Positions 19,462 through 39,162 are shown, numbered from the stretch's first letter. The stretch is 64,000 nt of DNA from an uncultured Bacilli bacterium (GCA_964483175.1 CAZAAT010000001.1:7292-71291); one strand, 5' to 3'. The notes: generated by a model not told the origin, from the letters alone. Made by a program: numbers and translations.

Positions 19462-19499
19462 GGCAAACCCCTCTCTTGCTTGCCATCCGTAGCAATTGG

Positions 19500-20868: not shown

Positions 20869-20881
20869 CGGAAAAACCTTT

Positions 20882-21361: not shown

Positions 21362-21371
21362 GCGACCATGA

Positions 21372-21608
21372 TTATTCTACAGTGTAAGGCAACAGAGCAA
21401 CCTGACGAGCCCGTTTAATCGCGATGGTCATTTGCCGCTGGTGCTTAGCACAGTTGCCGGAGATCCGCCTGGGGAGAATCTTGCCACGCTCGGTCAAATA
21501 CCGACGTAACCGGCTGGCCTCTTTATAGTCGATATGCTCTACTTTATCTGAGCAGAAACTACAAACGCGTTTCCGACGTCTGCGGCCTCCACGTTCAGGA
21601 CGAGCCAT
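21372..21608 (-). CDS. rpsR: 30S ribosomal protein S18
   Basis: 78 aa: ...[61 protein letters not shown]. Confidence 0.9.
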
Positions 21609-21625
21609 AATCTATTCCTCCAATC

Positions 21626-22024
21626 TTAGAAAGGTAAATCATCTTCGAATGTCTGCCCACCACCGAAATCATCGTTGATGCTAGGCGAGGCAGCACCACT
21701 ATCTTTTGGCCGATCCAAAAATTGTGTCGAATCGGCTACGACCTCATATGCCTTGCGTTTGCTGCCATCCTGGGCCTCGTAGCTTCGAACCTGCAGACGG
21801 CCATCAACAGCAACCAACCTACCTTTAGCAAGGTGGTTAGCTACTAGTTCTGCTTGGCGGCGCCAAACAACAATATCGATGAAATCGACGTCGCGCTCAC
21901 CGCTCTGGGATTTGAAGGGCCGCTCCACTGCCAAAGTGAAATTGGCCACGGGAATACCATTGGGTGTATAGCGCAAGGCTGGGTCAGCAGTTAGCCGACC
22001 GATTAAAACTACTCTGTTGAGCAT
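21626..22024 (-). CDS. ssb: Single-stranded DNA-binding protein
   Basis: OB-fold N-terminus MLNRVVLIGRLTADPALRYTPNGIPVANFTLAV and acidic C-terminal tail ending DDLPF. Confidence 0.9.
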   Translation of the reverse strand: MLNRVVLIGRLTADPALRYTPNGIPVANFTLAVERPFKSQSGERDVDFIDIVVWRRQAELVANHLAKGRLVAVDGRLQVRSYEAQDGSKRKAYEVVADSTQFLDRPKDSGAASPSINDDFGGGQTFEDDLPF

Positions 22025-22047
22025 TACCCTCACTCCTTTGCCGGGGC

Positions 22048-22335
22048 CTACTGCTCATCCGCAACAATTAAGTAGCGCAAGGTCTCATTAGTGATCTTCA
22101 ACACCCGGTTTAACTCCTCGATTGCTGCCGGAGTAGCCGTTGTGTTAAGCACTACATAGTAACCCTCGGTGATGTCATCAATTTCGTAGGCCAAACGCCG
22201 TTTGCCCCATTTGTTGATGTTGGTTATCTCACCGCCAAGGCCGCCTAAGATTTCTCCATAGCGGGCGAGAGCAGCATCGATAGCCTCATCATCCAATTGG
22301 GGTTTAAATACGAGCATGATTTCGTAATTGCGCAC
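22048..22335 (-). CDS. rpsF: 30S ribosomal protein S6
   Basis: 95 aa: MRNYEIMLVFKPQLDDEA... GTG start with strong RBS GGAGGAGGTGG. Confidence 0.9.
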   Translation of the reverse strand: MRNYEIMLVFKPQLDDEAIDAALARYGEILGGLGGEITNINKWGKRRLAYEIDDITEGYYVVLNTTATPAAIEELNRVLKITNETLRYLIVADEQ

Positions 22336-22445
22336 CGAGATCCACCTCCTCCCTCTGGACTATGGCCCCACCACATCGGATGGAGCAGGGATGTAGACTT
22401 TCGTCTACACGTGCTTTACTAGTTTATCACTTGTCTGGGAATTGA
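22336..22445 (-). promoter_or_regulatory. rpsF promoter and structured 5-prime leader (candidate S6:S18 autoregulatory element)
   Basis: Minus-strand TTGCTC-17nt-TGaTAAACT (extended -10) followed by a perfect hairpin GUAGAC-GAAA-GUCUAC and G-rich tract before the RBS. Its position matches the known S6 operon leader in Firmicutes. Not verified against a covariance model. Confidence 0.3.
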
Positions 22446-22452
22446 GCAACCC

Positions 22453-22668
22453 TCAGTTGTCCACATCTTTGGCAACCGAGACTACCTTTTTCAGCCCTTT
22501 TTCGAATTTGGGCCTGGCTAACATCACTAGGCGTCCGCAACCGAGACATTTCAACCGGAAATCCATGCCCACTCGCAAGATCTCCCAGCGATCACTTCCA
22601 CACGGATGGCTTTTTTTCATCTGCACGATATCACCGATCTGATATACGCCAGGCATGGTGGCCCTCAC
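22453..22668 (-). CDS. DUF951 family small protein
   Basis: 71 aa with conserved core IVQMKKSHPCGSDRWEILRVGMDFRLKCLGCGRLVML, as in the DUF951 family found next to the rpsF operon in Firmicutes. Confidence 0.6.
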   Translation of the reverse strand: MRATMPGVYQIGDIVQMKKSHPCGSDRWEILRVGMDFRLKCLGCGRLVMLARPKFEKGLKKVVSVAKDVDN

Positions 22669-22715
22669 CCCTTACTCTTCATTAGTCGGGTCTCAATAGT
22701 CCGCGAAGATGCACT

Positions 22716-23561
22716 TCACTGAGGGAAGGATATTTCGATCCCAGCTGCATCCAACGCCTCTTTGATTTTTTTCTGGAGCATGCGGCTTGCTAACCACTGC
22801 TGCATCGGTTGGGTTTGCCCCCAAACCTTAATATTTACAAACGAGTCAGCCGATTCTTCCATCCCCAAAACAACCGGTTTTTCCACAAACAGTTCTTTGT
22901 GTCCATTGGCAACCTCAGCCACCGCTTGTTGAACTACCGCAATTGCCTGATCCACATCGGCCTCCTGGTTCACCCGAACATCAAGCTGCACCCGCATTTT
23001 CGGACCCATATAGTTGGTGACCTGGTTCACACTGCCATTAGGGATGATGTGTAGCTGACCGCCAAAATCTCTGATCTTGGTAGTCCTAAGACCCATCTCT
23101 TCGACAATTCCGCTCTTACCGGCTATCTGAACATAATCTCCCACATTGTACTGCTCCTCGAAGAGAATGAAGAATCCGGTAATGATATCCTTGACCAGGC
23201 TCTGAGCACCAAAGCCAACGGCCAAGCCGCCGATTCCGGCTGCGGTCAAGAGTGAGGTAACTGAGATGCCGAGCTGCTGCAGGATCGTTACTCCGCCGAT
23301 GAAATAGATGATATATCGGGCGATGCTTTTGACCAAAGTCCCGATGGTTTTAGCTCTGCCTTCGGCAGAAGCAGCAAATCTCTCATTGCCGGTTATTACC
23401 CGGTCAATCGCCACCTCAGCAAATTTTAACAAAACCCGCGTGATAATTAAAACAACAATAATTGAAATGATCCGACCGGAAAATGCCATAAGGTTTTCTG
23501 GCGAAAGAGCATGACCAACATAATCTCCGACATTAGCCATGGTTGTTACAGCCGATTCCAT
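22716..23561 (-). CDS. Small-conductance mechanosensitive channel (MscS family)
   Basis: 281 aa; 3 TM helices followed by MscS beta-domain motif ...GDYVQIAGKSGIVEEMGLRTTKIRDFGGQLHIIPNGSV. Confidence 0.8.
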   Translation of the reverse strand: MESAVTTMANVGDYVGHALSPENLMAFSGRIISIIVVLIITRVLLKFAEVAIDRVITGNERFAASAEGRAKTIGTLVKSIARYIIYFIGGVTILQQLGISVTSLLTAAGIGGLAVGFGAQSLVKDIITGFFILFEEQYNVGDYVQIAGKSGIVEEMGLRTTKIRDFGGQLHIIPNGSVNQVTNYMGPKMRVQLDVRVNQEADVDQAIAVVQQAVAEVANGHKELFVEKPVVLGMEESADSFVNIKVWGQTQPMQQWLASRMLQKKIKEALDAAGIEISFPQ

Positions 23562-23574
23562 TCGCTATCCCCCA

Positions 23575-24441
23575 TTATTCTCCTATTACTTTCAGAGCTA
23601 ATTCAGGTTTGCCCATCGGAAAGATGTGTGCTCCCGCCGCCCGCGTACGAAGATACGCAAGTATTTCCCGGGCAATAAGCACGCCCTCTTCAGAATTACC
23701 TGATTTCACCCGCTCGAGCACCTCGGCAGGAATATTAATTCCTGGCACCTTTTCTGCCAGGTATTTAGCTGAACGAAAATTCTTCAAGGGGAGAATACCA
23801 TAGAGAATCGGCAACTGCAAGTGGGCAGTAGCTGCTTGAAAACGCTCGAACTGCTCCGGAGAAAAGATTGGCTGAGTCTGTACAAATCCGGCCCCGGCCT
23901 TGGCTTTTCTTTCTAGTCTGGCTACTTCTGCTGCCAAGTCAGGAGCGGTCGGATTAGCTACCGTTCCAATGAAAAAATCAGTCGGCGCAGCCAATTCCTT
24001 CTGTGAGAGGGCAACACCCCGGTTTAAGGAGTCGGCCATGGCAATAAGACCAACCGAATCGACATCGAAGACACCGGTAGCTGAGGGATGGTCGCCATTT
24101 TCGGGAGGATCGCCTGTTAAAGCGAGGATATTCTGCACCCCCAAAGCCGCGGCACCAAGTAGCTCTGCCTGCAACCCCAGCAAATTACGATCCCGGCAGG
24201 TTAAGTGAAAAATGACCTCCAGACCCCATTTTTCTTGAATTAGATAGGCTAAGGCAATCGGACTCATCCGTAAGGTAGCCATCGGACTATCAGCAATATT
24301 TACCGCTGCAAACCGCTCAGTTAATGGGCCAATCTCTGCAAGTGTCTGACTCGGATCGGAGCCGGCTGGGGGCTCCATCTCCACCGTCAGGACAAACTCC
24401 CCCTTGGCTAACCGCTCCCGTAGCGATAATTGCGTCTTCAC
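23575..24441 (-). CDS. metF: 5,10-methylenetetrahydrofolate reductase
   Basis: 288 aa MetF fold with FAD-binding/TIM barrel motifs (...FHLTCRD..., ...LALTGD...). Overlaps the metH stop by 4 nt. Confidence 0.85.
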   Translation of the reverse strand: MKTQLSLRERLAKGEFVLTVEMEPPAGSDPSQTLAEIGPLTERFAAVNIADSPMATLRMSPIALAYLIQEKWGLEVIFHLTCRDRNLLGLQAELLGAAALGVQNILALTGDPPENGDHPSATGVFDVDSVGLIAMADSLNRGVALSQKELAAPTDFFIGTVANPTAPDLAAEVARLERKAKAGAGFVQTQPIFSPEQFERFQAATAHLQLPILYGILPLKNFRSAKYLAEKVPGINIPAEVLERVKSGNSEEGVLIAREILAYLRTRAAGAHIFPMGKPELALKVIGE

Positions 24442-26873
24442 TTCCCCATCCCCCTTACCTGTTTTAACAGGCGCTTCGCCTCCTGAACACCGGCTACAGC
24501 ATCCTTACCATAACCCGCTGCCCCGATCTCTTTGGCGTAATCTGCCGTTACTACTGCTCCGCCAACTAAAACAGGTAGTTGTGGAGCTGCTTCCCGTAGC
24601 CTCTGCACGGTTTTGGCCATCGCCGGTAGGGTCGTGGTCATCAAAGCACTCAATAAGACAAGGTCAACCTGTTCAGCCACGGCCACACGAACAATTTCCT
24701 CTACCGGTACATCCTTACCCAAATCCAGCATGCTAAAGCCGTGATTCTCCAAGATCACCTTGACGATGTTCTTGCCGATATCATGGATATCTCCTTCGAC
24801 GGTAGCGATAAGCGCCCGGCCAGCCACAACCCGATCATCCAGCGGAAAGCGGTCCTTAATTATGGCAAAAGCTTTTTGGGCGGCCTCTGCTGACAGCAAG
24901 AGGTTGGGTAAAAAATACTCGCCCTGTTCATACTTGGCTCCCACTACTTCCAGGGCCGGCGTTAAGATCTCGGTTACCAGCTTCAGCGGATCCATTCCCG
25001 CTGATAATAGTCTTTCGACCACCGGAGCTACCCCCTCACGATCCCCCGAAACCACTTGCTTTGCTAACAGCTGGTGGTCATTGTTGGACCGTGTCTCTCT
25101 CTGCGGGGCTTTGTTCTGGGCTTCTTTGCCGCCGAAAACAGAGAGATATCTGGTAGCGCCCTGATCACGCCCTGCCAGTAAGTTTGCTGCAACAATAGTA
25201 TCTCTGGTTGAATCGATTAAGGGGTTTATTATGGCAGCATCAAGGCCGCTGCTGATAGCCATGGCTAAAAAAGCATCATTTAGCGGAATCCGATTGGGTA
25301 GACCATGAGAGATGTTGCTAATGCCGAGGACACAACAGACCCCGAGTTCTTGCTTAATTAGTTGAATTGCTTTGAGCGTCTCCCGGGCGGACTGCTGATC
25401 CACTCCGACCGTCATGGTTAAACAATCGATCATGATCTCACTGGGGTCGAGTCCATAACTCTGCGCGGTCCGGACAATCAGCTCCGCGGCAGCAAGTCGT
25501 TCTCTAGCCGACTGAGGGATGCCTTGCTCAGTAATCGTCAACCCAATAACAGCCGCACCATATTTTTTAGCAATCGGCAAGAGCTGAGCAAGACTTTCCT
25601 TTTTGGCCGTAACCGAATTCAGCAAAGCCTTGCCTTGATAAATGGAAACTCCGGCCCGTAAGACCTCCGGAGTAGCGCTATCGAGTACCAGAGGCAAACC
25701 GGTAACTCGTTCGACCGCCGGAACCGCTTGTCTAATTGCCGCAACCTGATCAATACCGGCGACGCCAACATTAAGATCTAATAGTTCGGCCCCGATTTCT
25801 GCCTGCTGCCGGGCCTCCCGAGATACCTCAATCATGGCCCCGCTTGCAATATCAGCGGCTAACTGTTTTCGTCCGGTTGGATTAAGGCGCTCCCCGATTA
25901 TGCGCACCGGTTGATTGGCCCCAATGGCAACATGCTCAGTACGTGAGGCCAAATAGAGCACACCTTGTGGTCTGGGAGAGGAGACCACCGGGGTACCGCC
26001 AAGGTGAGCGGCGAATCTAAGATGATCCGGAGTTGTGCCACAACATCCACCAACAATTGCTGCCCCGCTCGATTGGAGTCGTTCCAGTCCGGCTACGAAC
26101 TCTTCCGGATTAGCTGGAAAAACGGTGCGTCCCCCTTCTAGTCTCGGCAGGCCAGCATTCGGCTCGGCGAGGATCGGGGATAGACCCAGTGCAGCCATTC
26201 GCTCGATGATCGGTACCAGTTCTTGCGGACCGAGAGAGCAGTTGGCGCCTACCACACTCGCTCCAGCCGCGCTCAAGGAAATGACCGCAGCCTCCGGAGT
26301 TGCTCCGGTTAGCGTGCGCCCCGAAGCCTCAAAGTTCATACTGCACCAAACCAGCACCCCAAGCTCTTTAGCTGCCAGAATAGCCTGGCGTGCCTCGGCT
26401 AAATCGCTCATGGTCTGGATGTAAATCAGATCTGCACCGGCTTCGACCAAAGACCTTGCCTGCCGGAGAAACGCGGTATAGGCGGTCTGTAGCGGGAGGG
26501 ATCCATATGGTTCTAGTAGCTCCCCAAGTGGGCCGATAACACCAGCGACCCCGGCCGTGCCATCTCGTCCGGCTTGAACAATCGCTTGCCGCGCTAATTT
26601 AACCCCGTGCCAATTGAATGTCTCAACCTCTTCAGCCAGCCCAAACTGGGCTAATTTGAATTGGTTAGCACCAAAGGTGTTGGTCTCAATGATTTGTGCC
26701 CCTGCCTGGAGGTAGGATTGGTGCACCGACTGGACCAGATCGGGCCGGCTAACATTCCACGCTTCGGGACACTCCTTCACCGACAAGCCGAGGGCCTGTA
26801 AAGTCGTACCCATAGCCCCATCCAGAAGGATCAATCCCCGGCCAAGCTGCGCCGTTAGCGAAGAAGCGTTCAC
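24438..26873 (-). CDS. metH: Cobalamin-dependent methionine synthase (homocysteine-binding, pterin-binding, B12-cap and B12-binding modules; no activation domain)
   Basis: 811 aa; Hcy domain (GGCCGTTPDH), pterin-binding domain, and C-terminal B12-binding DxHxxG (GDIHDIGKNIV) with Rossmann segment. Ends after the cobalamin domain. Confidence 0.9.
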   Translation of the reverse strand: MNASSLTAQLGRGLILLDGAMGTTLQALGLSVKECPEAWNVSRPDLVQSVHQSYLQAGAQIIETNTFGANQFKLAQFGLAEEVETFNWHGVKLARQAIVQAGRDGTAGVAGVIGPLGELLEPYGSLPLQTAYTAFLRQARSLVEAGADLIYIQTMSDLAEARQAILAAKELGVLVWCSMNFEASGRTLTGATPEAAVISLSAAGASVVGANCSLGPQELVPIIERMAALGLSPILAEPNAGLPRLEGGRTVFPANPEEFVAGLERLQSSGAAIVGGCCGTTPDHLRFAAHLGGTPVVSSPRPQGVLYLASRTEHVAIGANQPVRIIGERLNPTGRKQLAADIASGAMIEVSREARQQAEIGAELLDLNVGVAGIDQVAAIRQAVPAVERVTGLPLVLDSATPEVLRAGVSIYQGKALLNSVTAKKESLAQLLPIAKKYGAAVIGLTITEQGIPQSARERLAAAELIVRTAQSYGLDPSEIMIDCLTMTVGVDQQSARETLKAIQLIKQELGVCCVLGISNISHGLPNRIPLNDAFLAMAISSGLDAAIINPLIDSTRDTIVAANLLAGRDQGATRYLSVFGGKEAQNKAPQRETRSNNDHQLLAKQVVSGDREGVAPVVERLLSAGMDPLKLVTEILTPALEVVGAKYEQGEYFLPNLLLSAEAAQKAFAIIKDRFPLDDRVVAGRALIATVEGDIHDIGKNIVKVILENHGFSMLDLGKDVPVEEIVRVAVAEQVDLVLLSALMTTTLPAMAKTVQRLREAAPQLPVLVGGAVVTADYAKEIGAAGYGKDAVAGVQEAKRLLKQVRGMGK

Positions 26874-26902
26874 AAATACCCCCCCATTGTCATGACTTGA
26901 AG

Positions 26903-27592
26903 CTAGTCACGAAATTGGCAGTCTTCTAACGAACATCGGCTGCACTCGCTTTTTCCCTGTTGCTTTAGGTCGTTAGTTCCAATCCCGATTAACGCAGTAA
27001 TCGATTTGCGCGGAACTAACAGCCCGGATTTATTTAGGCTAATCCCAACCCGATCTCCCTGGGTTAATGGGAATAGGCTGTGTTGTGCTTCTAGTGGCCA
27101 ATCATTGTACCCGGGACTGATGCGATCACCAGCGATTAATCCGATCTGCCCAGCTCGTTGGCGCACTGTTTGATTGACCCTCTCCGCTAAGGATTCGACT
27201 GCCACCGACCCCGCGGCGTCTAATACAGCGCCCTTAGTGTATTCGCCCCGCTCGAAAAGGGAATTTACCTCATCCTCAAGTTTGGAGCCAATAGTTACAG
27301 CAAAAAGATATGCCCGACTGATTCGGCCAAGACGCCGAATAGTTCGGGCCCCGGATATTTGCAGGCTGTCGCCGATTCTGATCTCCTGTTCAGAGATTAC
27401 CGCAGGATAGTCAAGGCCGATCCCCGCTGGTCTGACGAGCTCAAAGGCGAACTCACACATTTGCCGGCAAACTGCCATTGCTTCGGGGGTCGGGGGGCTT
27501 TTCTGAGCGCGATGACCCAGGTACCGTAAGACCTCGGAGAGTTCGATCCGAACCTCAAGATCTGTCCACTGCCCGTCTAACCCGATGCGCAT
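26903..27592 (-). CDS. Stand-alone methionine synthase activation-domain protein (Met_synt_B12 / AdoMet-binding reactivation module)
   Basis: 229 aa; motifs ...YLFAVTIGSKLED..., ...RISPGYNDWPLEAQHSLFPL... characteristic of the MetH C-terminal reactivation domain. ATG has GGAGG 8 nt upstream. Immediately upstream of metH, as in Clostridia/Thermotoga split MetH. Confidence 0.75.
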   Translation of the reverse strand: MRIGLDGQWTDLEVRIELSEVLRYLGHRAQKSPPTPEAMAVCRQMCEFAFELVRPAGIGLDYPAVISEQEIRIGDSLQISGARTIRRLGRISRAYLFAVTIGSKLEDEVNSLFERGEYTKGAVLDAAGSVAVESLAERVNQTVRQRAGQIGLIAGDRISPGYNDWPLEAQHSLFPLTQGDRVGISLNKSGLLVPRKSITALIGIGTNDLKQQGKSECSRCSLEDCQFRD

Positions 27593-28391
27593 TCCAATCC
27601 TCCGAACTGTATTTGCTCAGTACCAAATCATTCGCCAAGCGGCGTTCTGAGGACGACAATTTTGAACTAATCAAGGAGATCTCAAAGGTATGTTCCCAAC
27701 CGAAAGATAAAGCATCTACCACCTCATCGAAACATACATTGCGCCCTAAAGTGGTATGTAAATCTGCTACTGAGGCTTGCAAGGTTTCGGCGAGCTCAGG
27801 GTGTTGTTGGCCAGATAGTAGATAGACAAGGCGAGCCGCATCAAAGCGGAGCAATATCGAACCGTGCTGGAGGATTACCCCATGTTGGCGAAGCTGCGCG
27901 CTACCGACGAGTTTGCGGCCAGCCACTACAATCTCGTAGGAACTGGTGGCATCAAAGCAAGCTGCCGAGGCAGGTGTAGATTTTTTGCGCCGACCGGGAA
28001 CCATCTCAGCCGGGACACCCAGATCCCTTAGTCCCTGCAGAATACCCTGGCTTAAAACCCGATAGGAATCGGTCACCCCACCAGAAGATAGCAAGCGATG
28101 ATTCTCCGGCAGAATCAGCGCATAGGTGACCTCATGGTCATGTAAAACCGCACGCCCACCGGTTGGCCGTCGCACGCAGTCCACCCCGAGCTCACGGCAG
28201 GCCTCCAAACTTACCGAACGGCCTCGGTCCTGGAAATGGCCCAGGCTGATACAAGGGGGGGACCACCCGTAAAACCGGATGATCGGCAGGCTATGACCAG
28301 TTGCCACCTGGTTAAGCAGCATCTCGTCGATGGCCATATTTTCCGCCCCCGTACGGAAACCGGTGTTGAGCAACCTCCACTCATTACTCAT
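27555..28391 (-). CDS. Lipoate/octanoate-protein ligase, LplA/LipM family (catalytic BPL/LPL domain only, ~278 aa)
   Basis: WRLLNTGFRTGAENMAIDEMLL...RFYGWSPPCISLGHFQ...RRPTGGRAVLHDHEVTYALIL...RKLVGSAQ (catalytic Lys in K-x-x-GSAQ). The ATG at 28391 has GGTGGAG upstream. Length equals Bacillus LipM-type octanoyltransferases and lacks the LplA C-terminal accessory domain. Confidence 0.75.
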   Translation of the reverse strand: MSNEWRLLNTGFRTGAENMAIDEMLLNQVATGHSLPIIRFYGWSPPCISLGHFQDRGRSVSLEACRELGVDCVRRPTGGRAVLHDHEVTYALILPENHRLLSSGGVTDSYRVLSQGILQGLRDLGVPAEMVPGRRKKSTPASAACFDATSSYEIVVAGRKLVGSAQLRQHGVILQHGSILLRFDAARLVYLLSGQQHPELAETLQASVADLHTTLGRNVCFDEVVDALSFGWEHTFEISLISSKLSSSERRLANDLVLSKYSSEDWNAHRVRRAVDRS

Positions 28392-28432
28392 TTTTAACTC
28401 CACCAACCTTGCCAGTTATACCCAATTATACA

Positions 28433-29389
28433 CTACAGATCCAGGTCTGCAAAGGCCTTTTCGATCTCAATACCGGTCAAAGGTCGGGGATAATTGTAAA
28501 AGGTCTGTCCGGGGCGCTCATTGTAATAGGGGCGATTGCATCCGGGACAACCGCTGGTACGAAAAGCTGTACCGGCGGAGAGCAACCCCTCCAACTCGGA
28601 ACGAGAATAGCCGAAATCGCGGATCTGACCGTCCGCAGAAAAAGATAGCTCTAAGGGCAACCCCGAAGCCAACAAGTAATTTAGCACCTGAATCCGACGG
28701 TACTGATCAAGCGGTGGTGGAGGTAGCTTGGCTAACCTGGTCCCGGGAACCGGGGTGAAGGCGAAAAGACCCACCCGCACTCCAACAGACCAAAAATCCT
28801 TTAGGATCTCGGCAGCATCTGCCTCGGTCTCACCAAGTCCGATGATCAAATGGGTCGATATCTTGCCTGGATAAGTTAGGGCTGCCTCTTTAATTAAACG
28901 GTAAACTCGGGAGTAGTCCCCGTTTTTGGTCTGGTGAAAAACCCAAGGAGTCGCGGCATCAAGTGGAATACCGATCCGGTCCAATCCGGCTTGCAGTAGT
29001 CGGCCAACCTCTTCCGTGCTTTCCGGTAGGAGTGAGCTACTGATCGGAATTTCTGCCAGACCCGGAGTTTTCCTAATCTTCCCAACAAGCTCATGCAACT
29101 GGCTCACCCGCTGCGGCCCGATTACGGTTTGGATACAAATGCGGGCAAATGAATTCTGCAGCAATTGCACTTGTTCCGGGCGGAGCAAATCCGCAACCTC
29201 AAAGGTCGGCCAAGAAATCCGCGACAACCACTTGTGGTCACTCTGGCTGGACCTGGCTTGCGGGCAGAAGCCACAATCGCTACGACAGTCACCTGCCATC
29301 AATAAGTAACAGGTCGACGGCTTCTCTACCATCTTTGCCCGAGCGAGGCCCAGGACAACGGCGCTGCCTAAACTGACTCTAATCTGCAT
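28433..29389 (-). CDS. Radical SAM protein, second of a tandem pair in the gcv operon; candidate LipS-type lipoyl synthase subunit
   Basis: Single CxxxCxxC (CRSDCGFC) about 30-50 aa from the N-terminus, a GLGE-type glycine-rich segment, and extra Cys pair CPGC near the C-terminus. The start is ambiguous: 29389 ATG, 29410 GTG or 29332 ATG. No LipA-type N-terminal CX4CX5C. Function inferred from context. Confidence 0.5.
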   Translation of the reverse strand: MQIRVSLGSAVVLGLARAKMVEKPSTCYLLMAGDCRSDCGFCPQARSSQSDHKWLSRISWPTFEVADLLRPEQVQLLQNSFARICIQTVIGPQRVSQLHELVGKIRKTPGLAEIPISSSLLPESTEEVGRLLQAGLDRIGIPLDAATPWVFHQTKNGDYSRVYRLIKEAALTYPGKISTHLIIGLGETEADAAEILKDFWSVGVRVGLFAFTPVPGTRLAKLPPPPLDQYRRIQVLNYLLASGLPLELSFSADGQIRDFGYSRSELEGLLSAGTAFRTSGCPGCNRPYYNERPGQTFYNYPRPLTGIEIEKAFADLDL

Positions 29390-30278
29390 CTCCATCACCA
29401 TAAAGAACACAACACTGCCAAAAATCTTCTTGCAGCATGCCTAGATATTCTGCTAACTGAAGCGCCCCGGGAGTTGGTTGAACTATCGCGTTTACCCCTG
29501 CCAACACGGCATAACGGTCAACTTCTTGACGATATCTGCCCGCCGGCCGCATACAGCCAAGGGTTACCCGCAGTTGCGGATAGTCGCGGCCCAGGGTGGC
29601 AAAGAACTCCGCTACCTCCGAAGGCTGAGGTGGTTGGCGATCAGCCAATCTTGTCCCCTTGGTGGGAATGAAGATCAGTACCACTAATTCACGAAATCCA
29701 GCCTTTTCTAGCAGCTTGACCGCATTTAATTCCGAGCTGAGCCCAGGCTCTTCAGACAGGCCCAGACAGAGATGTGGCACGACGCGCCGAAATCGGGATA
29801 ACAACAACAGCGAGTCCAATGCTTCAGCAACTGAGTAGTTCAAACCATAAATCTTCCGTAGGGTAGATTCATCACCGACAAAATCACAGGAAAAGACGGA
29901 GGCTACCTCAGCAAGTTGCTGAGCAGCCTCGAGACTCTGCACATAACCAGGGTGCAAGTTTAATTTATATTTCTTCCTTAGGGTCTTGATCGTTGCCAAG
30001 TGCGGCAGGATCGGAACAACCCCGGCTCCATCACAAGCCCCGCTAATCAGAAGACTTTTCCACGGGGAGGATTCCCTTTGCGCAACCTCCAGCAGAGGTT
30101 TCATCGCCTTTAGGTAGTGCCCTCCACAATGGGCACAATCCTGTGGACAAGCCTCCGAGGTAACCCTAACGGTTGCGGTGCCTGTCGGACGAACCGCGAG
30201 TAAAGTCGGGGCATGGTATTTTAACCGCTCCTGACGGACCTCCAACAAGCCAAGTTCGAGTTGGCTAAACCTCTCCAC
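29379..30278 (-). CDS. Radical SAM protein, first of a tandem pair in the gcv operon; candidate LipS-type lipoyl synthase subunit
   Basis: 299 aa with GTG start 2 nt after the gcvPB stop (UAAuGUG). CxxxCxxC (CPQDCAHC), ISGACDG SAM-binding-like motif, and additional cysteines (CLGLS, GCMRPAG, C-terminal QCC) that could ligate an auxiliary cluster. Confidence 0.5.
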   Translation of the reverse strand: MERFSQLELGLLEVRQERLKYHAPTLLAVRPTGTATVRVTSEACPQDCAHCGGHYLKAMKPLLEVAQRESSPWKSLLISGACDGAGVVPILPHLATIKTLRKKYKLNLHPGYVQSLEAAQQLAEVASVFSCDFVGDESTLRKIYGLNYSVAEALDSLLLLSRFRRVVPHLCLGLSEEPGLSSELNAVKLLEKAGFRELVVLIFIPTKGTRLADRQPPQPSEVAEFFATLGRDYPQLRVTLGCMRPAGRYRQEVDRYAVLAGVNAIVQPTPGALQLAEYLGMLQEDFWQCCVLYGDGDAD

Positions 30279-30279
30279 A

Positions 30280-31749
30280 TTAACCCCGCCATCTCAGATC
30301 CGGATTGCGAGCTGCCGCGGTTTCATCTAACCTGTACACCGGCAGCTTAGTTGGTGCCTGCTGTAATAGCTCCGGATTTTGCTCGGCTTCGTGGGCAATT
30401 TGACGCATCACCTTGACAAAATCATCCAAGGTCTCTTTGCTCTCCGTCTCCGTAGGCTCGATCATCATCGCCTCCTCGACAATCAGCGGGAAGTAGATCG
30501 TCGGAGCATGAATACCAAAATCGAGCAATCGTTTGGCCATATCCAGAGTTTTCACCCCGTTGGCCTTTTGCCGTGAACCGGATAGCACAAACTCGTGCAT
30601 ACAGCGGCGCTGATACGGCAGATCAAAGTAGTCTTTTAATTGTTCTAACAAATAGTTGGCGTTGAGCACCGCATTTTCCGCAACCGCCTTCAGCCCGCTA
30701 GAGCCCATTTGTCGGATGTAGGTGTAAGCCTTCAACGCTACGAGAAAATTACCGTAGTAACCCTTGACTCTGCCGATTGACTGCGGTAAATCGTAATTAA
30801 ACTGGTAATTATCCGCCGCTTTGATCACTCGTGGTAGCGGCAGAAACGGCTCAAGTATCTTTTTGACACCGACCGGACCGGAGCCCGGGCCGCCGCCGCC
30901 ATGCGGTGCCGCGAAGGTCTTGTGCAAATTTAGATGGATTACATCAAAGCCCATATCTCCCGGACGGGTGATCCCGAGAATGGCGTTGGCATTTGCTCCA
31001 TCATAATACAAGAGTCCGCCGGCATTATGAATAATCTCAGCTATCTCCAGAATGTTCTCTTCAAACAAGCCCAGAGTATTCGGGTTGGTTAACATCAGTG
31101 CTGCTGTTTGCGGACCAACGACCCGCCGCAAAGCCTCAATATCGACATTGCCCCGGTCATCGGATGGCACCTCCACCACTTTGAAACCGCACATAGCCGC
31201 GCTGGCCGGATTGGTTCCGTGCGCCGAGTCCGGAACAATTACCTCTCGGCGCATCGCCAACTCCCCGCGATGGCGATGGTAAGCCTTGATCAACATCAGC
31301 CCTGTCAACTCGCCATGAGCTCCGGCGGCTGGTTGCAGAGTAAAAGCATCCATACCCGTTATTTCACAGAGGTACTGCTCGAGCTCAAAGATCACCTGTA
31401 AAGAACCCTGGCAAGTCTCTTCTGGTTGGAGGGGATGAATACCGGCAAACCCATCCAAGCTGGCCACATCTTCGTTGATCTTCGGATTGTATTTCATTGT
31501 ACAGGAACCAAGAGGATAAAAACCCCTATCTACGCTATGGTTGAGCTCTGACAGTCTGGTAAAATGGCGAACAACCCCGAGCTCACTCACCTCCGGTAAG
31601 ACCGGAGGATTTTGCCGCAACAAGTTTTCTGGGAGGATGGCTGATAAAGGTTGGGCTGGAACATCTAAAGCCGGCAGTGAGAAACCGGTCCGCCCGGGGA
31701 CGCTTTCGGCAAAGATCGGCTTAACTCCAGCGGTATGACTGACTCTCAT
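30280..31749 (-). CDS. gcvPB: Glycine dehydrogenase (decarboxylating) subunit 2 (P-protein C-terminal half, PLP-binding)
   Basis: 489 aa with PLP-lysine motif [18 protein letters not shown]. Overlaps gcvPA by 4 nt. Confidence 0.9.
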
Positions 31750-33089
31750 AACAACCCCCCCATTACTTTAACCAGATAATCCAGCTCTTCTTTGGTCCGC
31801 TGCTCGGTAACGCAAAAGAGCACTAGATCATCGAGCTCAGGATAGTATCTGGCCAGAGGAAGCGGTCCAAGGATTCCATATTCGACCAACCGGCTGAACA
31901 GCTCTTCCGGGTTGGCCTTGACCCGTAGGGTAAACTCATGGAAAAATGGGCCCGGTAAACCTGGACTGACCCCTTCAATGTTCAACAGTTGATCGTACAA
32001 ATAATGTGCTTTCTGGACGGAATGCTCAGCTACCTTCGCCAAGCCTTGCGGGCCTAACAGCGAAAGATATACTGTTGCCGCCAACGCATTAAGGGCTTGG
32101 TTCGAACAAATATTCGAAGTGGCCTTCTGGCGCCTGATATGCTGTTCTCTCGCCTGCAGAGTCAATACGTACCCGCGGTTTCCTGCGGCATCAGTTGTAG
32201 CCCCGACAATTCGCCCCGGCATGCGCCGCAGATACTTTTCGCGGCAGGCCAGATAGCCCAAGTGAGGGCCGCCAAAAGCCATCGGATTCCCCAACGCTTG
32301 CCCCTCACCACAGGCGATATCTACACCTAATTCTCCTGGTGGTTTCAGTAGACCGAGAGCGATCGGATTGGCCGCACAGATCAGCAAAGCTCCGTGGGCG
32401 TGCGCGATTTCAGCTAGTTGCTCGATACCTTCTTCAATTTGACCAAAAAAATTGGGATATTGCACGATAACTGCAGCGGTTTGCTCATCGACAAGATCCC
32501 GAAGCTGTTCCACAGAAGGCTTTCCGTCACTAAGTGCCCCAACAACCAGCTGTAAATCCAGGAAGTCACAATAAGTCGCTAAAACGCGTTGGTACTCCGG
32601 ATTAATGCTGGCTGAGGCCACAACTTTGGATCGCCGGGTAGCTCCCGTAGCCATTAAGGCCGCCTCCACCAACGCAGTAGCTCCATCATACAAAGATGCG
32701 TTAGAGACATCGAGTCCAGTAAGGTTGCAAATCATGGTCTGATACTCGTAAATAGCCTGGAGGGTTCCTTGGCTAATCTCTGCTTGGTACGGAGTATAGG
32801 CGGTATAGAACTCGGAGCGCCCCAAAATATGCCGAACAACGCTCGGGATATAGTGGTCATATGTACCAGCGCCTAAAAAAACCATAGCCTCAGCTGAACT
32901 AATATTTCGCGCAGCCAAAGACTTCAGGTTTTTTATCAAGATCGGTTCCGGTTCCGGCGCGGGTAATTTCAGCTCTCTGGTCAAGCGCAGACTAGCCGGG
33001 ATATCCGCAAAAAGCTCGGCAACCTGCTCTACGCCAATAGCTGCCAGCATCTCAGCTTGATCGGCAGGGGTATTTGCGATAAATGACAC
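31746..33089 (-). CDS. gcvPA: Glycine dehydrogenase (decarboxylating) subunit 1 (P-protein N-terminal half)
   Basis: 447 aa with N-terminal region ...[15 protein letters not shown]...[13 protein letters not shown] typical of GcvPA. Confidence 0.9.
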
Positions 33090-33093
33090 AGGC

Positions 33094-33477
33094 TCACTCT
33101 CCTTCTATAAAAGCCTCATACTCCTGGTTAGTCATCAGCTTATCGAGTTCGGTTAGGTCCAGCATCTCAATTACCGCAATCCATCCATCGTTATAGGGAT
33201 CCTGATTTAATAATTCCGGACTATCTTCCAAATTGTCATTGACCTCAACAACTGTTCCAGAAATCGGTGCATAAACATCCGATACGGCTTTAACTGACTC
33301 GACCACCGCAAAATCATCGCCCTTAACGACCTCCTGACCGGGCGAGGGAAGGTCGACAAAGACTACATCACCTAATTCTTTTTGCGCATAATCGGTAATC
33401 CCGACAATGGCCCGTTTTCCACTGATTCTAATCCATTCGTGTTCCTTGGTGTACTTTAAATCAGAAGGGTTCATCAC
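33094..33477 (-). CDS. gcvH: Glycine cleavage system H protein (lipoyl carrier)
   Basis: 127 aa with lipoyl-lysine motif FAVVESVKAVSDVYAPISG. Confidence 0.9.
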   Translation of the reverse strand: MMNPSDLKYTKEHEWIRISGKRAIVGITDYAQKELGDVVFVDLPSPGQEVVKGDDFAVVESVKAVSDVYAPISGTVVEVNDNLEDSPELLNQDPYNDGWIAVIEMLDLTELDKLMTNQEYEAFIEGE

Positions 33478-33489
33478 TAATACCTCCGT

Positions 33490-34599
33490 TTACGATCTTT
33501 TTGTATATGGTTGAACAAATGGGACCGAAACTACTTGGGCTTCAACCAGTTTTTCGCGGATCTTGACCCAAATCCTACTTCCCGGCTCTGAATAGGGAAG
33601 GGTTACATAACCAAGGCCGATATTCTCCTCCAAAGTTGGTGCGAAAGAACCACTGGTTACCGACCCAATAACCTCCGCAGAACTATTTAAGATTTCATAT
33701 CCGTGACGGCAGACACCCCGCCCGATCATTTTGAACCCAATCAAAGATCTAGAAAGACCTTCTTCTTTCTTGGCGACTAACGCTTTTTTACCGATAAAAT
33801 CGCCTTTATCTAATTTCACCGTCCAACCCAAACCGGCTTCCCACGGGCTTATTTCCTCAGTCAACTCCTGGCCGTACAACGGATAAGCCAATTCTAAACG
33901 CAAGGTGTCCCGGGCCCCGAGTCCAACGGGCACAAGCCCGGTACCAGCACCGGCCTGCCTCAGCTCTTGCCAGAGAAAGCTTGCATCAGCTGCATCGACA
34001 TATAGCTCAAAACCGCGCTCCCCGGTATAGCCAGTTGCCGAAATCATGGCCGGCCGACCAGCCACCCTGCCCTCGACAAACGAATAGAACTTTAATTGGG
34101 AGAGATCCTCAGAACAAAGCTTGCCTAAAATCTCCTCGCTCTTGGGGCCTTGGATCGCTAACAAGGCGGTTTCGGCCGACTGGTTAACCAAATTAACGCC
34201 GGTACTCGGCAAATAATTGGCGAACCACTCCCAATCCTTGTCGGTATTGGCTGCATTAACCACCACCAGATACCGTTCACGATCGTAGCAATAGACAATG
34301 AGGTCGTCGACGACCCCACCATTTTCAGTACAGACTAAATTATACTGCGCCTTACCTGGCATCAACTTTGCCAGGTTGTTGGTCAAAAGTCGGTTCAAAT
34401 AATCATAAGCTCCCGGCCCTGATACATAGAATTCACCCATATGTGAAAGATCAAACAGTCCTGCGCTATTACGTACCGCCCGATGCTCCTCTAGGATCGC
34501 GGTATATTGAACCGGCATTTCCCAACCGCCAAAAGGAATCATCTTGGCTTTTAGGCCCACATGTTCTGCATAAAGCGGAGTTCTTTTCCATTCAGACAT
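33490..34599 (-). CDS. gcvT: Glycine cleavage system T protein (aminomethyltransferase)
   Basis: 369 aa with the GcvT fold. RBS GGAGG 8 nt before ATG. Confidence 0.9.
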   Translation of the reverse strand: MSEWKRTPLYAEHVGLKAKMIPFGGWEMPVQYTAILEEHRAVRNSAGLFDLSHMGEFYVSGPGAYDYLNRLLTNNLAKLMPGKAQYNLVCTENGGVVDDLIVYCYDRERYLVVVNAANTDKDWEWFANYLPSTGVNLVNQSAETALLAIQGPKSEEILGKLCSEDLSQLKFYSFVEGRVAGRPAMISATGYTGERGFELYVDAADASFLWQELRQAGAGTGLVPVGLGARDTLRLELAYPLYGQELTEEISPWEAGLGWTVKLDKGDFIGKKALVAKKEEGLSRSLIGFKMIGRGVCRHGYEILNSSAEVIGSVTSGSFAPTLEENIGLGYVTLPYSEPGSRIWVKIREKLVEAQVVSVPFVQPYTKRS

Positions 34600-34620
34600 A
34601 CGTCGCCCTCCTTCGCTGAA

Positions 34621-34710
34621 TAAAAAACAGAGTAGAGAATTGGCTCTCCTCTGTCCTGATGCCTGAGAGATAAACTGCTCTGATCGCTACACAGAGGTCT
34701 CTCTTAACTA
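34621..34710 (-). promoter_or_regulatory. Glycine-riboswitch-like leader element with intrinsic terminator (ON-switch architecture) upstream of gcvT
   Basis: Minus-strand RNA reads AAGAGAGACCUCUGUGUAGCGAUCAGAGCAGUUUAUCUCUCAGGCAUCAGGACAGAGGAGAGCCAAUUCUCUACUCUGUUUUUA. The block UCUCUCAGGCAUCAGGACAGAG is identical at 19 of 22 positions to the glycine aptamer 3-prime consensus ACUCUCAGGCAAAAGGACAGAG, and a GAGAGA lies upstream. CAGAGGAGAG/CUCUaCUCUG forms a terminator stem followed by UUUUUA and overlaps the aptamer P1 3-prime strand. The P2/P3a segments and a GCCGAAGGAGCAA core could not be located by eye, so this is a variant, a singlet, or only partly recognised. Confidence 0.4.
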
Positions 34711-34980
34711 GAATCACCCGGCGGGGATGATATTTATTTGCAGTCCACCATCATCTGCTATTATTTTATCTCTTTACTGGATATTCCTACCGCTAAGCCA
34801 AAAGATTTGCTCAAATAGACCAAAAAGCCGACCGAGCTATATAATATGAACGGGTTAGTTCCGTCGGCTGAGGGGGGATACTATGGAACGCATACTCCAA
34901 CTATTACTAAACCCAATCTTAAAAAGGGCACAAAAGACCGTCATTATCATTAGAAAGCGCAGAGCATAGAGTAATTATAA

Positions 34981-35030
34981 CCACCGGAAGTGCGGAAGCA
35001 CCAAGGTGGTGTTTTTTATCCGCACTTCGA
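34981..35030. terminator. Nested inverted repeats spanning the nrdJ stop codon: bidirectional terminator-like structure
   Basis: CCACC(34981-85)...GGTGG(35005-09) hairpin followed by TGTTTTTT on the plus strand. Perfect 10-bp arms GAAGTGCGGA (34987-96) / TCCGCACTTC (35019-28) give a long hairpin on the minus strand after the nrdJ TAA. Confidence 0.45.
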
Positions 35031-37277
35031 ATATCCGCAGGCAATACAGGTAATACAGCCGCTCTCATGGCTCAATTTATGCCCACACTCCGGGCACAAG
35101 GCGAAATCTTCAGCAATGGCCGCTTCTTGCTGGGCAGCCTGAGCACCCTGCGGTTTAAAAGGTAACTGCGGCTGAAAACCACCAAGAACCTGATCCTGGA
35201 ACTTCTTGATCGCTCGGGCAATGGCATCAGGACAAGAGGTCACATTAACCTCCTTACGGCGTACGCAGGCGGCACACCGGATGCCCCGGAGCTGTTCATA
35301 AATGGTTTGCACGGAAATACCGGAGCGCAAGGAGATCGAGATCAGACGGCTGGTAGCCTCAGACTGTGAAGAACAGCCACCCTCTTTGCCGGTATTGGTA
35401 AAGACCTCACAAATCCCGAATTCATCAGCATTTACACTGACGTATAAGGTTCCGCAGCCGACTTTTACCCGTTCGGTCGAACCGGTTGTTAGATCAGGGC
35501 GTGGACGTGGGGTTATATTAGTCGGATAAAGCGGTGCTGCCTCCTCTGTACTGGACTGTTGGGTCGCTTTGGTACCGGCCGTTAACACCTGTGATTCACG
35601 ACTGCCATCCCGGTAAACGGTGACCCCTTTACACCCTTCTTGATAGGCGAGTAGATATGCCTTGGCCACATCTTCCCGGGTAGCGCTCTTGGCAAAGTTA
35701 ATCGTCTTGCTCACAGCATTATCGGTATATTTCTGGAAAGCAGCCTGGATCCTGATGTGCCATTCCGGTTCGATATCGTGGGCGGTTACAAATATCCGCC
35801 GGAACTTCTCCGGAATCGACTCAATTTCTTGAACTGAGCCATGTTCAGCAACTTTCTCCATCAGCTGCGGAGTATAAAAACCCTCTTTCTTGGCGATCTC
35901 CTCGAACAATGGATTAACTTCGACCAATTTCGTGTTATCCATAACATTGCGCACGAAGGCTAAGGCAAATAGCGGCTCGATTCCACCTGATGCCTCAGCA
36001 ATGATGCTGATCGTGCCGGTCGGAGCGATGGTTGTGGTGGTAGCATTACGAACCTTAACTCCCAACGGTTCATAGGTGCTACCCTCATAATTCGGAAAGA
36101 CTCCGCGCTCCTCAGCCAAATCAGCCGAAGCAGCCCGAGCGGTCTGCTGAATGAAAGACATAACCGCTTCTGCTGTTTCTACAGCTTTTTCGGAGTTATA
36201 GGGGACCCCTAATCTAATTAGCAAGTCGGCAAAGCCCATCACGCCCAGTCCGATTTTGCGGTTGGCCTTGACCATTTCAGTAATCCGTTCTAACGGATAC
36301 TTACTGGCATCGATGACGTTGTCGAGGAAGCGAACGGCGATCGTAATTACGCGCTCTAACCGTTCCCAGTCAATTTCCGCGTCCTCGGTGACCATCTTGG
36401 CTAAATTGATAGAGCCGAGATTGCAGGCTTCATAGGGAAGAAGCGGCTGTTCTCCGCATGGGTTTGTGCTCTCAATCTCACCAACTTGGGGAGTAGGATT
36501 GTCCCGGTTAATCTGGTCGATAAAAATAACCCCTGGCTCGCCATTGCGCCAAGCCGCGTCAACGATTTGGTCAAAAACGTCTTGTGCAGAGAGTTTACCC
36601 ACAACTTGGCCATTTCTCGGGTTAATTAACTCATAGTCTCGGTGTTCTTTGAGAGCTACCATAAACTCATCGGTGATGGCAACCGAGATGTTGAAGTTGG
36701 TCAAGTCATCATTATTCTCTTTGGCATTAATAAAAGCGAGAATATCAGGATGGTCAACCCGGAGGATACCCATGTTAGCACCGCGACGAGTGCCGCCCTG
36801 CTTAACAGCGTCTGTCGCGGCATTAAAGACTTTCATAAATGAGATCGGACCGCTGGCAACGCCACCGGTTGATAGTACTTCATCATTACAGGGCCGTAGC
36901 CGGGAGAAGCTAAATCCAGTACCGCCACCGCTCTTATGAATCAATGCGGCATGCTTAATCGAATCAAAAATTGACTCCATCGAGTCCTCAACCGGCAAAA
37001 CAAAACAAGCCGCCAACTGTTGAAGTTCACGGCCGGCATTCATCAGGGTAGGGGAGTTTGGCATAAACTCCAAATTGGTCATAATTTCCAGGAACTGCTG
37101 CTTAATAGCTTCAACAGTCTCCTGGTCTTTGCCGTAACATTCGCTTTCGACATTAGCAATGTTTTCGGCAACACGGTTAAACATCTCATCGGGAGTCTCA
37201 ACTGCCTGTCCATTAACCTTTTTTAGATATCGTTTTTCCAAAACATTCAAGGCATTTTGCGATAACTTAACTCCCAT
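35016..37277 (-). CDS. nrdJ: Adenosylcobalamin-dependent ribonucleotide reductase (class II, NrdJ) with C-terminal Cys4 zinc ribbon
   Basis: 753 aa; class II hallmarks ...MNAGRELQQLAACFVLPVEDSMESI..., thiyl-radical loop ...STNPCGEQPL..., C-terminal CPECGHK...CITCIACGYSKCG. Confidence 0.88.
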   Translation of the reverse strand: MGVKLSQNALNVLEKRYLKKVNGQAVETPDEMFNRVAENIANVESECYGKDQETVEAIKQQFLEIMTNLEFMPNSPTLMNAGRELQQLAACFVLPVEDSMESIFDSIKHAALIHKSGGGTGFSFSRLRPCNDEVLSTGGVASGPISFMKVFNAATDAVKQGGTRRGANMGILRVDHPDILAFINAKENNDDLTNFNISVAITDEFMVALKEHRDYELINPRNGQVVGKLSAQDVFDQIVDAAWRNGEPGVIFIDQINRDNPTPQVGEIESTNPCGEQPLLPYEACNLGSINLAKMVTEDAEIDWERLERVITIAVRFLDNVIDASKYPLERITEMVKANRKIGLGVMGFADLLIRLGVPYNSEKAVETAEAVMSFIQQTARAASADLAEERGVFPNYEGSTYEPLGVKVRNATTTTIAPTGTISIIAEASGGIEPLFALAFVRNVMDNTKLVEVNPLFEEIAKKEGFYTPQLMEKVAEHGSVQEIESIPEKFRRIFVTAHDIEPEWHIRIQAAFQKYTDNAVSKTINFAKSATREDVAKAYLLAYQEGCKGVTVYRDGSRESQVLTAGTKATQQSSTEEAAPLYPTNITPRPRPDLTTGSTERVKVGCGTLYVSVNADEFGICEVFTNTGKEGGCSSQSEATSRLISISLRSGISVQTIYEQLRGIRCAACVRRKEVNVTSCPDAIARAIKKFQDQVLGGFQPQLPFKPQGAQAAQQEAAIAEDFALCPECGHKLSHESGCITCIACGYSKCG

Positions 37278-37316
37278 CGATAATCCCCCTGTATAAAAAA
37301 AGAAAAATGGCTAAAA

Positions 37317-37403
37317 CTACTACATGTAGTAGATAGTTCTAACCTATGATACTATATGTTGTGTTCTGTTGCAAGGATGGTTTGTCATCACCATATATCA
37401 TTA
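37317..37403 (-). promoter_or_regulatory. nrdJ upstream regulatory region: perfect 16-bp palindrome plus two NrdR-box-like sites
   Basis: CTACTACATGTAGTAG (37317-37332) is a perfect palindrome about 40 nt upstream of the nrdJ ATG. aTACTATATgTTGTGt (37349-37364, 14/16 to NrdR box acaCwAtATaTwGtgt) and tCACCATATATCAtta (37388-37403) are spaced about 39 bp start to start. Confidence 0.35.
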
Positions 37404-37448
37404 TTCGCCTCTGATATCATCCTTCCCTATCTGGGTTTTATTTTTCGA

Positions 37449-39116: not shown

Positions 39117-39162
39117 TCAGCCTTTGCTTTGTTATCTCCTATCTCAAATGTTTCCATAAATG

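Follow-up and report, generated by a model that had tools for sequence, protein, structure and literature searches.

A minus-strand row of ten genes in a 64,000-nucleotide stretch of DNA from an uncultured Bacilli bacterium (CAZAAT010000001.1:7292-71291; hereafter the window) joins the glycine cleavage system (GCS; gcvT, gcvH, gcvPA and gcvPB) to genes for maturation of the lipoyl cofactor (lipS1, lipS2 and an lplA-type ligase gene) and to a methionine-synthesis set consisting of a methionine synthase reactivation gene, metH and metF. The initial annotation had read this row as one 11-kb operon in which a glycine-responsive leader upstream of gcvT wires glycine directly to methionine synthesis. 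Our analysis does not support such a glycine-controlled operon for this genome. The account that we favour, and consider reasonably probable, is that modules of known kinds lie in a clade-specific row in which the glycine sensor has been lost, its terminator has been kept and an internal promoter serves lplA and the met genes. In what follows, L-numbers (L001–L097) denote the homologous loci or contigs compared with the window, and positions given without one are window coordinates.

A riboswitch remnant upstream of gcvT lacks both ligand-binding cores

The leader of gcvT contains, on the minus strand at 34653–34723, the remnant of a tandem glycine riboswitch, as judged by homology and position: with its terminator kept, the leader aligns flank to flank with the tandem elements of L003, L083 and L053 (alignments A3 and A7) and also with the shorter element of L002 (A2). 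In L003, L083 and L053 the tandem is complete and runs from a leader strand through aptamer 1, a linker and aptamer 2 to a terminator (A7). Of aptamer 1 the window retains the P0 or leader strand (CGCCGGGUGA), the 5′ strand of P1 (CUAGUUAA), AGAGAG and the 5′ strand of P2 (ACCUCUG). These are joined at about 34687–34679 to the P3 3′ strand, J3/1 and P1 3′ strand of aptamer 2 (CUCUCAGGCAUCAGGAC-AGAGG). Both ligand-binding cores, GCCGAAGGAGCA, which form the P3 5′ strand and the pocket, are deleted; they are represented by gaps in the window row of all three alignments and are absent from 34600–34770. Further, the conserved junction that reads GGAGAG in the relatives is AGAGAG in the window, and the counterpart of their 3′ strand, CUCUCAGGCA...GGAC, is CUCUCAGGCAUCAGGAC at 34669–34653.

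Covariance searches gave the same picture. The Rfam glycine riboswitch family RF00504 had no match in the window at its gathering score (32 bits), nor at E ≤ 10 in 22000–38000 or in the 461-nt leader. Among the relatives its scores ranged from 42.8 to 74.7 bits, with matches directly before gcvT in L003 (69.8 bits), L083 (66.3), L053 (63.1) and the L002 type (42.8), as well as in Desulforudis (L024) and Thermincola (L064). In Sporomusa (L006), in which gcvT was not detected, the match precedes gcvH. With no RF00504 match, both cores deleted and only a terminator left, the claim that the leader responds to glycine is not borne out.

In total, approximately 113 nt of the tandem are missing from the window. 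About 60 nt of this loss, a stretch that begins in the 3′ end of aptamer 1 and takes in the 5′ half of aptamer 2, are common to the L002 lineage, and a further 53 nt, comprising the P2 3′ strand and the whole P3 of aptamer 1, are missing from the window in comparison with L002. Apart from those 53 nt the two leaders are 84% identical. The L002 element itself (5508–5636, corresponding to 2825–2953 in L088, L091 and L092) keeps aptamer 1 nearly whole, with aptamer 2 reduced to its 3′ half; Rfam reports it as a single aptamer interrupted by an insert of 51 nt (42.8 bits), and it is reproduced in four separate assemblies. L012 (5429–5720) and L085 (2774–3065), which carry the same gcv-lip-met row, have neither a glycine riboswitch nor a terminator relic before gcvT, so that the clade has seen at least two losses of the riboswitch. 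We propose that the ancestral row of the clade was headed by an ON-type tandem glycine riboswitch. In the window two nested deletions, the first of about 60 nt and common to the L002 lineage, the second of 53 nt, removed both glycine-binding cores and left the terminator intact.

The deleted leader is present in a Logan contig (SRR8449813) and in an ENA k141 contig, both 100% identical to the window over 33961–40277. Contigs L096 and L097 stop at 33961 and L001 starts at 33940, inside gcvT, so that only in the window source does one contig carry both the leader and the remainder of the operon. The join looks correct, since across 33940–33961 gcvT is uninterrupted and collinear with its L002 counterpart, but the break suggests strain heterogeneity.

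The terminator of the expression platform is retained

The predicted intrinsic terminator of the riboswitch expression platform lies on the minus strand at 34621–34654, ends approximately 20 nt upstream of the start codon of gcvT and consists of ACAGAGGAGAG-CCAAUU-CUCUACUCUGU followed by U6. It is 94% identical to that of L002. Where relatives have the complete tandem, the 5′ arm of the terminator is formed by the P1 3′ strand of aptamer 2, an arrangement that is the usual ON design for gcv riboswitches (PMC5066625, PMC6944388). Ensemble prediction for the 146-nt 5′ region gives the terminator pairs a probability of ~1.0, and in predicted folding the 5′ arm is not sequestered by the nascent RNA. 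Because the aptamers are gone and the terminator is kept, attenuation at this site would be independent of glycine, and transcription of gcvT through lipS2, having no glycine switch via a canonical aptamer, would depend on read-through of a slightly weakened terminator.

The calculated hairpin energy is −12.9 kcal/mol in the window, −16.9 kcal/mol in L002 and −14.7 kcal/mol in L003; the window hairpin is thus the weakest of the three, although L003, L002 and the window do not form a monotonic series. At one stem position (34648/34632), L003 has a G-C pair, L002 has G-U and the window has a mismatched G/A. Weakening of the terminator as compensation for the lost sensor is possible, but the comparison is anecdotal. 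A constitutive antiterminator created by the deletion (CCUCUG:CAGAGG) was considered and rejected, since it is 6.3 kcal/mol worse when forced and is absent from the minimum free energy structures of the nascent RNA. Folding of the whole leader gave z = 0.0 against shuffled sequences and thus no support for a large novel structured RNA.

A putative internal promoter precedes lplA

The second element that carries our account is a putative sigma-70-type promoter on the minus strand at 28425–28453, in the gap between lipS2 and lplA. It can be read as TTTGCA or TTGCAG separated by 17 or 16 nt, respectively, from TATAAT, with the −35 element overlapping the last lipS2 codons and TATAAT situated 2 nt past the lipS2 stop. 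The element matches the consensus at 10 of 12 positions, is the best minus-strand match in 17 kb and is one of three that good on both strands. The sequence T[GA]TATAATTGG after the lipS2 stop is invariant in the window, L002, L003, L012, L083 and L085 (A4, A6), among which synonymous sites are saturated, and it is kept in L083 despite a moved stop codon, while the rest of the 41-nt gap varies. It is absent from approximately 45 other Bacillota lipS2-lplA junctions, where the genes abut or overlap and no met genes follow.

Based on this pattern, a conserved internal promoter probably drives lplA and the met genes, and the row probably comprises at least two overlapping transcription units. In our account lplA, the reactivation gene, metH, metF and probably the following mscS gene would be transcribed from this promoter, and methionine synthesis would therefore not depend on the gcv leader. 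The met module may have been appended to a glycine-gated operon, with a constitutive promoter before lplA uncoupling lplA, the reactivation gene, metH and metF (and possibly mscS) from glycine. The description of the leader as the only obvious regulatory region consequently does not stand, given the conserved promoter-like element at the lipS2/lplA junction. As for the single operon, the common strand, the short gaps and the lack of internal terminators are as had been described, but the predicted internal promoter is of the kind that the initial annotation had itself named as splitting the locus.

In L062, a Peptococcaceae metagenome-assembled genome outside the met clade, the lipS2-lplA gap (11781–11872) is 91 nt long and holds an extended −10-like sequence, TGTGTTATAAT, which may be an independent internal promoter before lplA.

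Gene identities and junctions

Open reading frame (ORF) calls together with Pfam and NCBIfam matches uphold the ten genes named at the outset, all on the minus strand at 23575–34599. The T, H, PA and PB proteins of the GCS (four of four) exceed curated cutoffs: gcvT (33490–34599) encodes an aminomethyltransferase (Pfam GCV_T, 326 bits; NCBIfam GcvT, 465 bits), gcvH (33094–33477) the lipoyl carrier H protein (Pfam GCV_H, 162 bits) with the lipoyl-lysine motif ESVKA in its translation, and gcvPA (31746–33089) and gcvPB (30280–31749) glycine dehydrogenase subunits 1 and 2 (NCBIfam GcvPA, 644 bits; GcvPB, 792 bits). No gene for the L protein, dihydrolipoyl dehydrogenase, was found within the row at 21324–35015.

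Two adjacent radical-SAM (S-adenosylmethionine) genes follow, matching the models of both lipoyl synthase subunits. LipS2 (28433–29401) scores 337 bits with NF053743, for which the cutoff is 270, while LipS1 (29379–30278) scores 220.7 bits with NF053742, about 9 under the cutoff of 230; its motif CPQDCAHC (CxxxCxxC) has C44, C48 and C51 invariant in an alignment of 15 homologs (A1). Linkage agrees with this assignment, as an lplA-type gene lies 41 nt downstream and gcvH is in the same row. The lplA-type gene (27555–28391) encodes the catalytic domain only of a putative lipoate/octanoate-protein ligase of 283/278 aa (Pfam LplA-B_cat, 138 bits; best PDB match Thermoplasma acidophilum LplA, 2ARS, E=3e-19); with NCBIfam LplA_large it reaches 111 bits, far under the cutoff of 480, and the closest proteins are catalytic subunits of LplA. 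It may be an LplA ligase, using ATP and the free acid, or a LipM-like transferase, using octanoyl-ACP. The row contains no gene for LplB or LipT. By their sequences LipS1, LipS2 and the ligase are predicted to make the GcvH lipoyl arm, with sulfur insertion into octanoyl-GcvH as the predicted activity.

The methionine-synthesis set begins with a gene for a stand-alone, AdoMet-binding MetH reactivation protein of 229 aa (26903–27592), which matches PDB 1J6R from Thermotoga maritima (214 aa; E=1.7e-11) and Pfam Met_synt_B12 at 24.1 bits, with a cutoff of 25. Its C-terminal tail carries CxxCxxxxC (CSRCSLEDC). The overlap of this gene with the lplA-type gene (27555–27592) is 38 nt long and measures 32–38 nt in every clade member, an odd translational link between unrelated functions. 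metH (24438–26873) encodes a cobalamin-dependent methionine synthase of 811 aa with the Pfam domains S-methyl_trans, Pterin_bind, B12-binding_2 (B12-cap) and B12-binding and a DIHDIG motif; it has no activation domain, and with the separate activation protein encoded next to it constitutes a split cobalamin-dependent methionine synthase. metF (23575–24441) encodes a methylenetetrahydrofolate reductase (Pfam MTHFR, 131 bits; NCBIfam NF006396 positions 311–599, 306 bits) resembling the C-terminal half of YitJ.

With conserved start codons, the nine junctions from gcvT to metF measure +12, +4, −4, +1, −23, +41, −38, +29 and −4 nt, and a terminator scan found no terminator-like hairpin at any of them, which confirms the tight packing reported initially. 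In the gap between the reactivation gene and metH, the one conserved feature is a ribosome-binding site. Ratios of nonsynonymous to synonymous substitution (dN/dS) of 0.04–0.15, and of 0.04–0.11 for the gcv and lipS genes, show purifying selection on every gene.

The lack of an S-box upstream of metH was likewise confirmed: at gathering score, neither a SAM riboswitch nor any other Rfam family was detected in the 64-kb window, and over 22000–38000, including the lplA and MetH-activation region, no SAM riboswitch appeared even at E ≤ 10. The matches that did appear at E ≤ 10 (small nucleolar RNA, HIV SL3 and long noncoding RNA families) were rejected as chance. Nor did Rfam detect a SAM-class riboswitch in L002, L003, L012, L083, L085 or L088. 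It would follow from our account that no SAM-responsive RNA controls metH or metF here.

The met extension is confined to one clade

Comparison of the locus across relatives, as the initial annotation had called for, recovered the same gcv-lip-met order in about six lineages. A profile scan of a genome collection with the LipS1 alignment yielded 80 loci, which were annotated by tblastn using the window proteins. gcvT-H-PA-PB-lipS1-lipS2-lplA occurs in identical order in approximately 50 Bacillota loci among these, including Sporomusa, Pelosinus, Propionispira, Desulforudis, Thermincola, Syntrophomonadaceae and Desulfitispora, so that coupling of lipoyl assembly to glycine cleavage is common; in Chloroflexota the order differs (lipS1-gcvH-PA-PB). 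The met extension was present in only three of the 80 loci (L002, L003 and L012) and in L082–L095, found besides, with a constant order through mscS, DUF951 and rpsF. These comprise the L002 type, recovered in four further separate assemblies (L088–L092), and two Logan lineages (L082–L084 and L085–L087). L053 is also placed in this group; its nrdJ is followed by gcvT through lipS1 and then by the contig end.

The met-extended row therefore marks a small uncultured Bacillota clade of about six lineages, and its conservation among them indicates that the clustering is not a chance juxtaposition. Since clade proteins are only 50–80% identical and synonymous sites are saturated while the order is the same, the met linkage has been stably inherited, yet it is narrowly distributed. 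Homologs of the MetH-reactivation protein outside the clade are too few and too distant for a wider survey of metH and metF regulation in Bacillota. Of the arrangement described at first as unusual, only the met extension, which is confined to one clade, is special; the coupling of lipoylation to gcv is widespread and not novel. We accordingly describe the row as two modules. Module 1 would be the widespread Bacillota gcvT-H-PA-PB-lipS1-lipS2-lplA cluster, and module 2 a methionine-synthase set of the split type, in which MetH and MetF are accompanied by a TM0269-like reactivation protein and which appears to have been joined behind lplA with the 38-nt overlap.

In Thermincola ferriacetica (L064, 14098–14934 and 15365–18280), a second set of glycine aptamers (three matches) stands before a second, divergent gcvPA/PB-like pair, about 4 kb downstream of the gcv-lipS-lplA cluster.

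Upstream gap and boundaries of the row

The gap upstream of gcvT is not the single 400-nt leader described initially, as it also holds a divergent conserved small ORF with its own promoter-like site. This ORF of 28 codons, MERILQLLLNPILKRAQKTVIIIRKRRA, lies on the plus strand at 34883–34969, is preceded by a G-rich ribosome-binding site and has a promoter-like sequence, TAGACC-18-TATAAT, at 34816–34845 on the same strand. Homologs of 26–28 codons with the pattern ME[KR]LLQxLLNPIL[KR]..KTVIxIK.. occur in L003 (~5205–5299, minus strand), L012 (~5500–5587, minus), L083 (~2608–2688, minus) and L085, and a search of the small ORF against Pfam gave no match. In these four relatives a gene for a DedA/VTT-family membrane protein follows the small ORF; it is lost in the window and in L002. 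The gcv 5′ untranslated region proper is only about 160 nt long. The best candidate for the gcv promoter is the conserved GTAGGAAT-N15-ATAAAATAA block at 34790–34761, whose −35 element is poor for sigma-70 and whose placement is not confident. The ATATTATATAG block at ~34838–34848 was rejected in this role, as it reads as the plus-strand TATAAT before the small ORF. Farther upstream is the class II ribonucleotide reductase gene nrdJ (35016–37277).

Downstream, the row does not end at metF as had been supposed. An mscS-family channel gene (22716–23561, minus strand; Pfam MS_channel domains) begins 13 nt after metF with no intervening terminator and occupies the same place in every clade member; it is followed on the minus strand at 21324–22668 by a DUF951 gene (Pfam match) and rpsF-ssb-rpsR. 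Only at 21352–21324 does the row first reach a strong predicted terminator of the intrinsic type, which has a stem of 12 bp and a T-rich tail. The region 17491–22668 as a whole is a conserved Bacillota origin-proximal block (DUF951, rpsF-ssb-rpsR, MazG-like, DUF2232/yybS, rplI and Lon-like protease genes), so that the locus is probably near the replication origin and on the leading strand.

Discussion

Our reading of the locus combines observed gene order, observed deletions and a conserved junction element with promoter activity, terminator efficiency and a loss of the glycine response that are deduced from sequence, and several findings weigh against it. The promoter scan overall was not enriched in comparison with shuffled sequences (13 found, 15.4 expected), and part of the −35 conservation could reflect constraint on the C-terminal end of LipS2. 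As lipS2 and lplA are not separated by a terminator, gcv read-through into the met genes is possible, and a long transcript may exist as one of several. The gcv and lipS genes show no signs of decay, which is hard to square with long-term silencing by the terminator. The remnant is 87% identical to L002, as against 56% for the sequence after the nrdJ stop and about 60% at third codon positions, and such strong conservation points either to a residual or new function of the relic, which is represented by a single sequence, or simply to a recent second deletion. Finally, the window and the two contigs with the same deletion may go back to a common set of reads.

One long glycine-responsive operon, with a single promoter before gcvT through which glycine sets the levels of MetF and MetH, is unlikely in the window. 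It would account for the single strand, for the tight or overlapping junctions free of terminators and for a gene order conserved in about six lineages, and in L003 and L083, where an intact tandem riboswitch stands before the same row, glycine-induced read-through could reach metH and metF. The window, however, has no glycine aptamer, as both cores are deleted, and has a conserved promoter-like element before lplA; moreover, the same row in L012 and L085 without a riboswitch implies that the linkage is independent of glycine control.

That the remnant is instead a working regulatory RNA, for example a minimal or altered aptamer, a sensor of another ligand or a target for a protein or small RNA, controlling the kept terminator, is in our judgment very unlikely. 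The identity of remnant and terminator to L002 (87–94%, versus ~56–60% at neutral sites) and the continued purifying selection on the gcv and lipS genes would suit it, and P1-like and P2-like helices are predicted to be able to re-form (GAGAGA/UCUCUC and CUCUG/CAGAG). On the other hand, the P3 5′ strand with the most conserved nucleotides of the glycine pocket is gone, GGAGAG has become AGAGAG, and predicted folding yields the formed terminator with no competing structure. A single sequence of this form allows no assessment of covariation, and a recent deletion in a formerly functional L002-type element explains the conservation equally well.

It is highly improbable that the deletion arose in assembly or consensus building, or that it represents a minority form in an organism that really has an L002-type or tandem riboswitch, for although the source is a metagenome, two metagenome-collection scans gave no further copy of the leader and contigs of other assemblies break in gcvT at 33940–33961, hinting at strain heterogeneity nearby, the identical Logan and ENA contigs come from different assemblers, the junction is not a long-repeat collapse (the shared aptamer motifs span only 11–14 nt), and the first deletion is already carried by L002, in four separate assemblies.

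Under the reading that we prefer, namely loss of the sensor, retention of the terminator and an internal promoter for lplA and the met genes, each module is of a known kind: gcv with a tandem riboswitch, LipS1/LipS2 with a ligase, a Thermotoga-type split MetH and a YitJ-type methylenetetrahydrofolate reductase. What is new is their clade-specific concatenation, the absence of a SAM-responsive RNA for metH and metF, and the riboswitch decay series.

The window leader has the same place before gcvT and the same ON-type platform as the tandem glycine riboswitch of the gcvT operon (Bacillus subtilis type, RF00504). Singlet glycine riboswitches with 'ghost aptamers' have been proposed to come from degraded tandems (Ruff et al. 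2016, PMC5066625; Crum et al. 2019, PMC6944388), and deletion of the middle of a tandem was deemed an unlikely route to singlets (Crum et al. 2019, PMC6944388). In contrast to the latter view, the L002 form looks like just such a middle-of-tandem deletion. The window goes a step beyond any singlet, having lost both aptamers rather than one and having no recognisable glycine-binding core while keeping the terminator.

Two-protein lipoyl synthases working with a ligase are described from Thermococcus kodakarensis (PMC9585515) and, as bacterial sLpl(AB)-LipS1/S2 systems, by Tanabe et al. 2023 (PMC10332631). As in these systems, lipS1 and lipS2 in the window are adjacent and lie beside an LplA-family ligase gene; unlike them, they stand behind gcvPB in a gcv row and not beside shdr-lbpA or lipT, and the ligase is a catalytic domain only. 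Likewise, the met set resembles the split MetH of T. maritima (TM0268 with the reactivation protein TM0269, 1J6R), in that MetH has no C-terminal AdoMet activation domain and a 1J6R homolog of about 220 aa adjoins it, but here the reactivation gene is upstream of metH, overlaps the lipoate-ligase gene and encodes the CxxCxxxxC tail. MetF shares its pathway role and its likeness to the YitJ C-terminal half with S-box (SAM-I) met genes such as B. subtilis yitJ, a fused homocysteine methyltransferase and methylenetetrahydrofolate reductase, whereas the window and its clade relatives have no SAM riboswitch and the met genes are appended to a gcv/lipoylation row.

The GCS generates methylene-tetrahydrofolate, and MetF and then MetH use this product. 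This link from GCS through MetF to MetH was already established, and our findings leave knowledge of the pathway unchanged. They do indicate that tight packing and a long upstream gap are insufficient to infer a ligand-controlled operon. Further, lipS1 and lipS2 lie routinely inside Bacillota gcv operons, usually after a glycine riboswitch, which implies that the machinery for the GcvH cofactor is co-expressed with GcvH itself. The decay series of the clade, from tandem to mid-deleted single aptamer to terminator-only relic, with complete loss in L012 and L085, would be useful in the debate on singlet origin and for testing an orphaned expression platform.

Cumulatively, these observations leave one attractive possibility for the clade, that MetH and MetF belong to the glycine regulon in the relatives with intact riboswitches. 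In L003 and L083, glycine-induced read-through may raise MetF and MetH over the level set by the basal internal promoter, replacing SAM-riboswitch feedback, while in the window the sensor would have been discarded and the terminator kept as a fixed attenuator or re-used by some other factor. We regard this extension as doubtful, but if true, it would constitute a feed-forward link from glycine catabolism to the supply of methyl groups.

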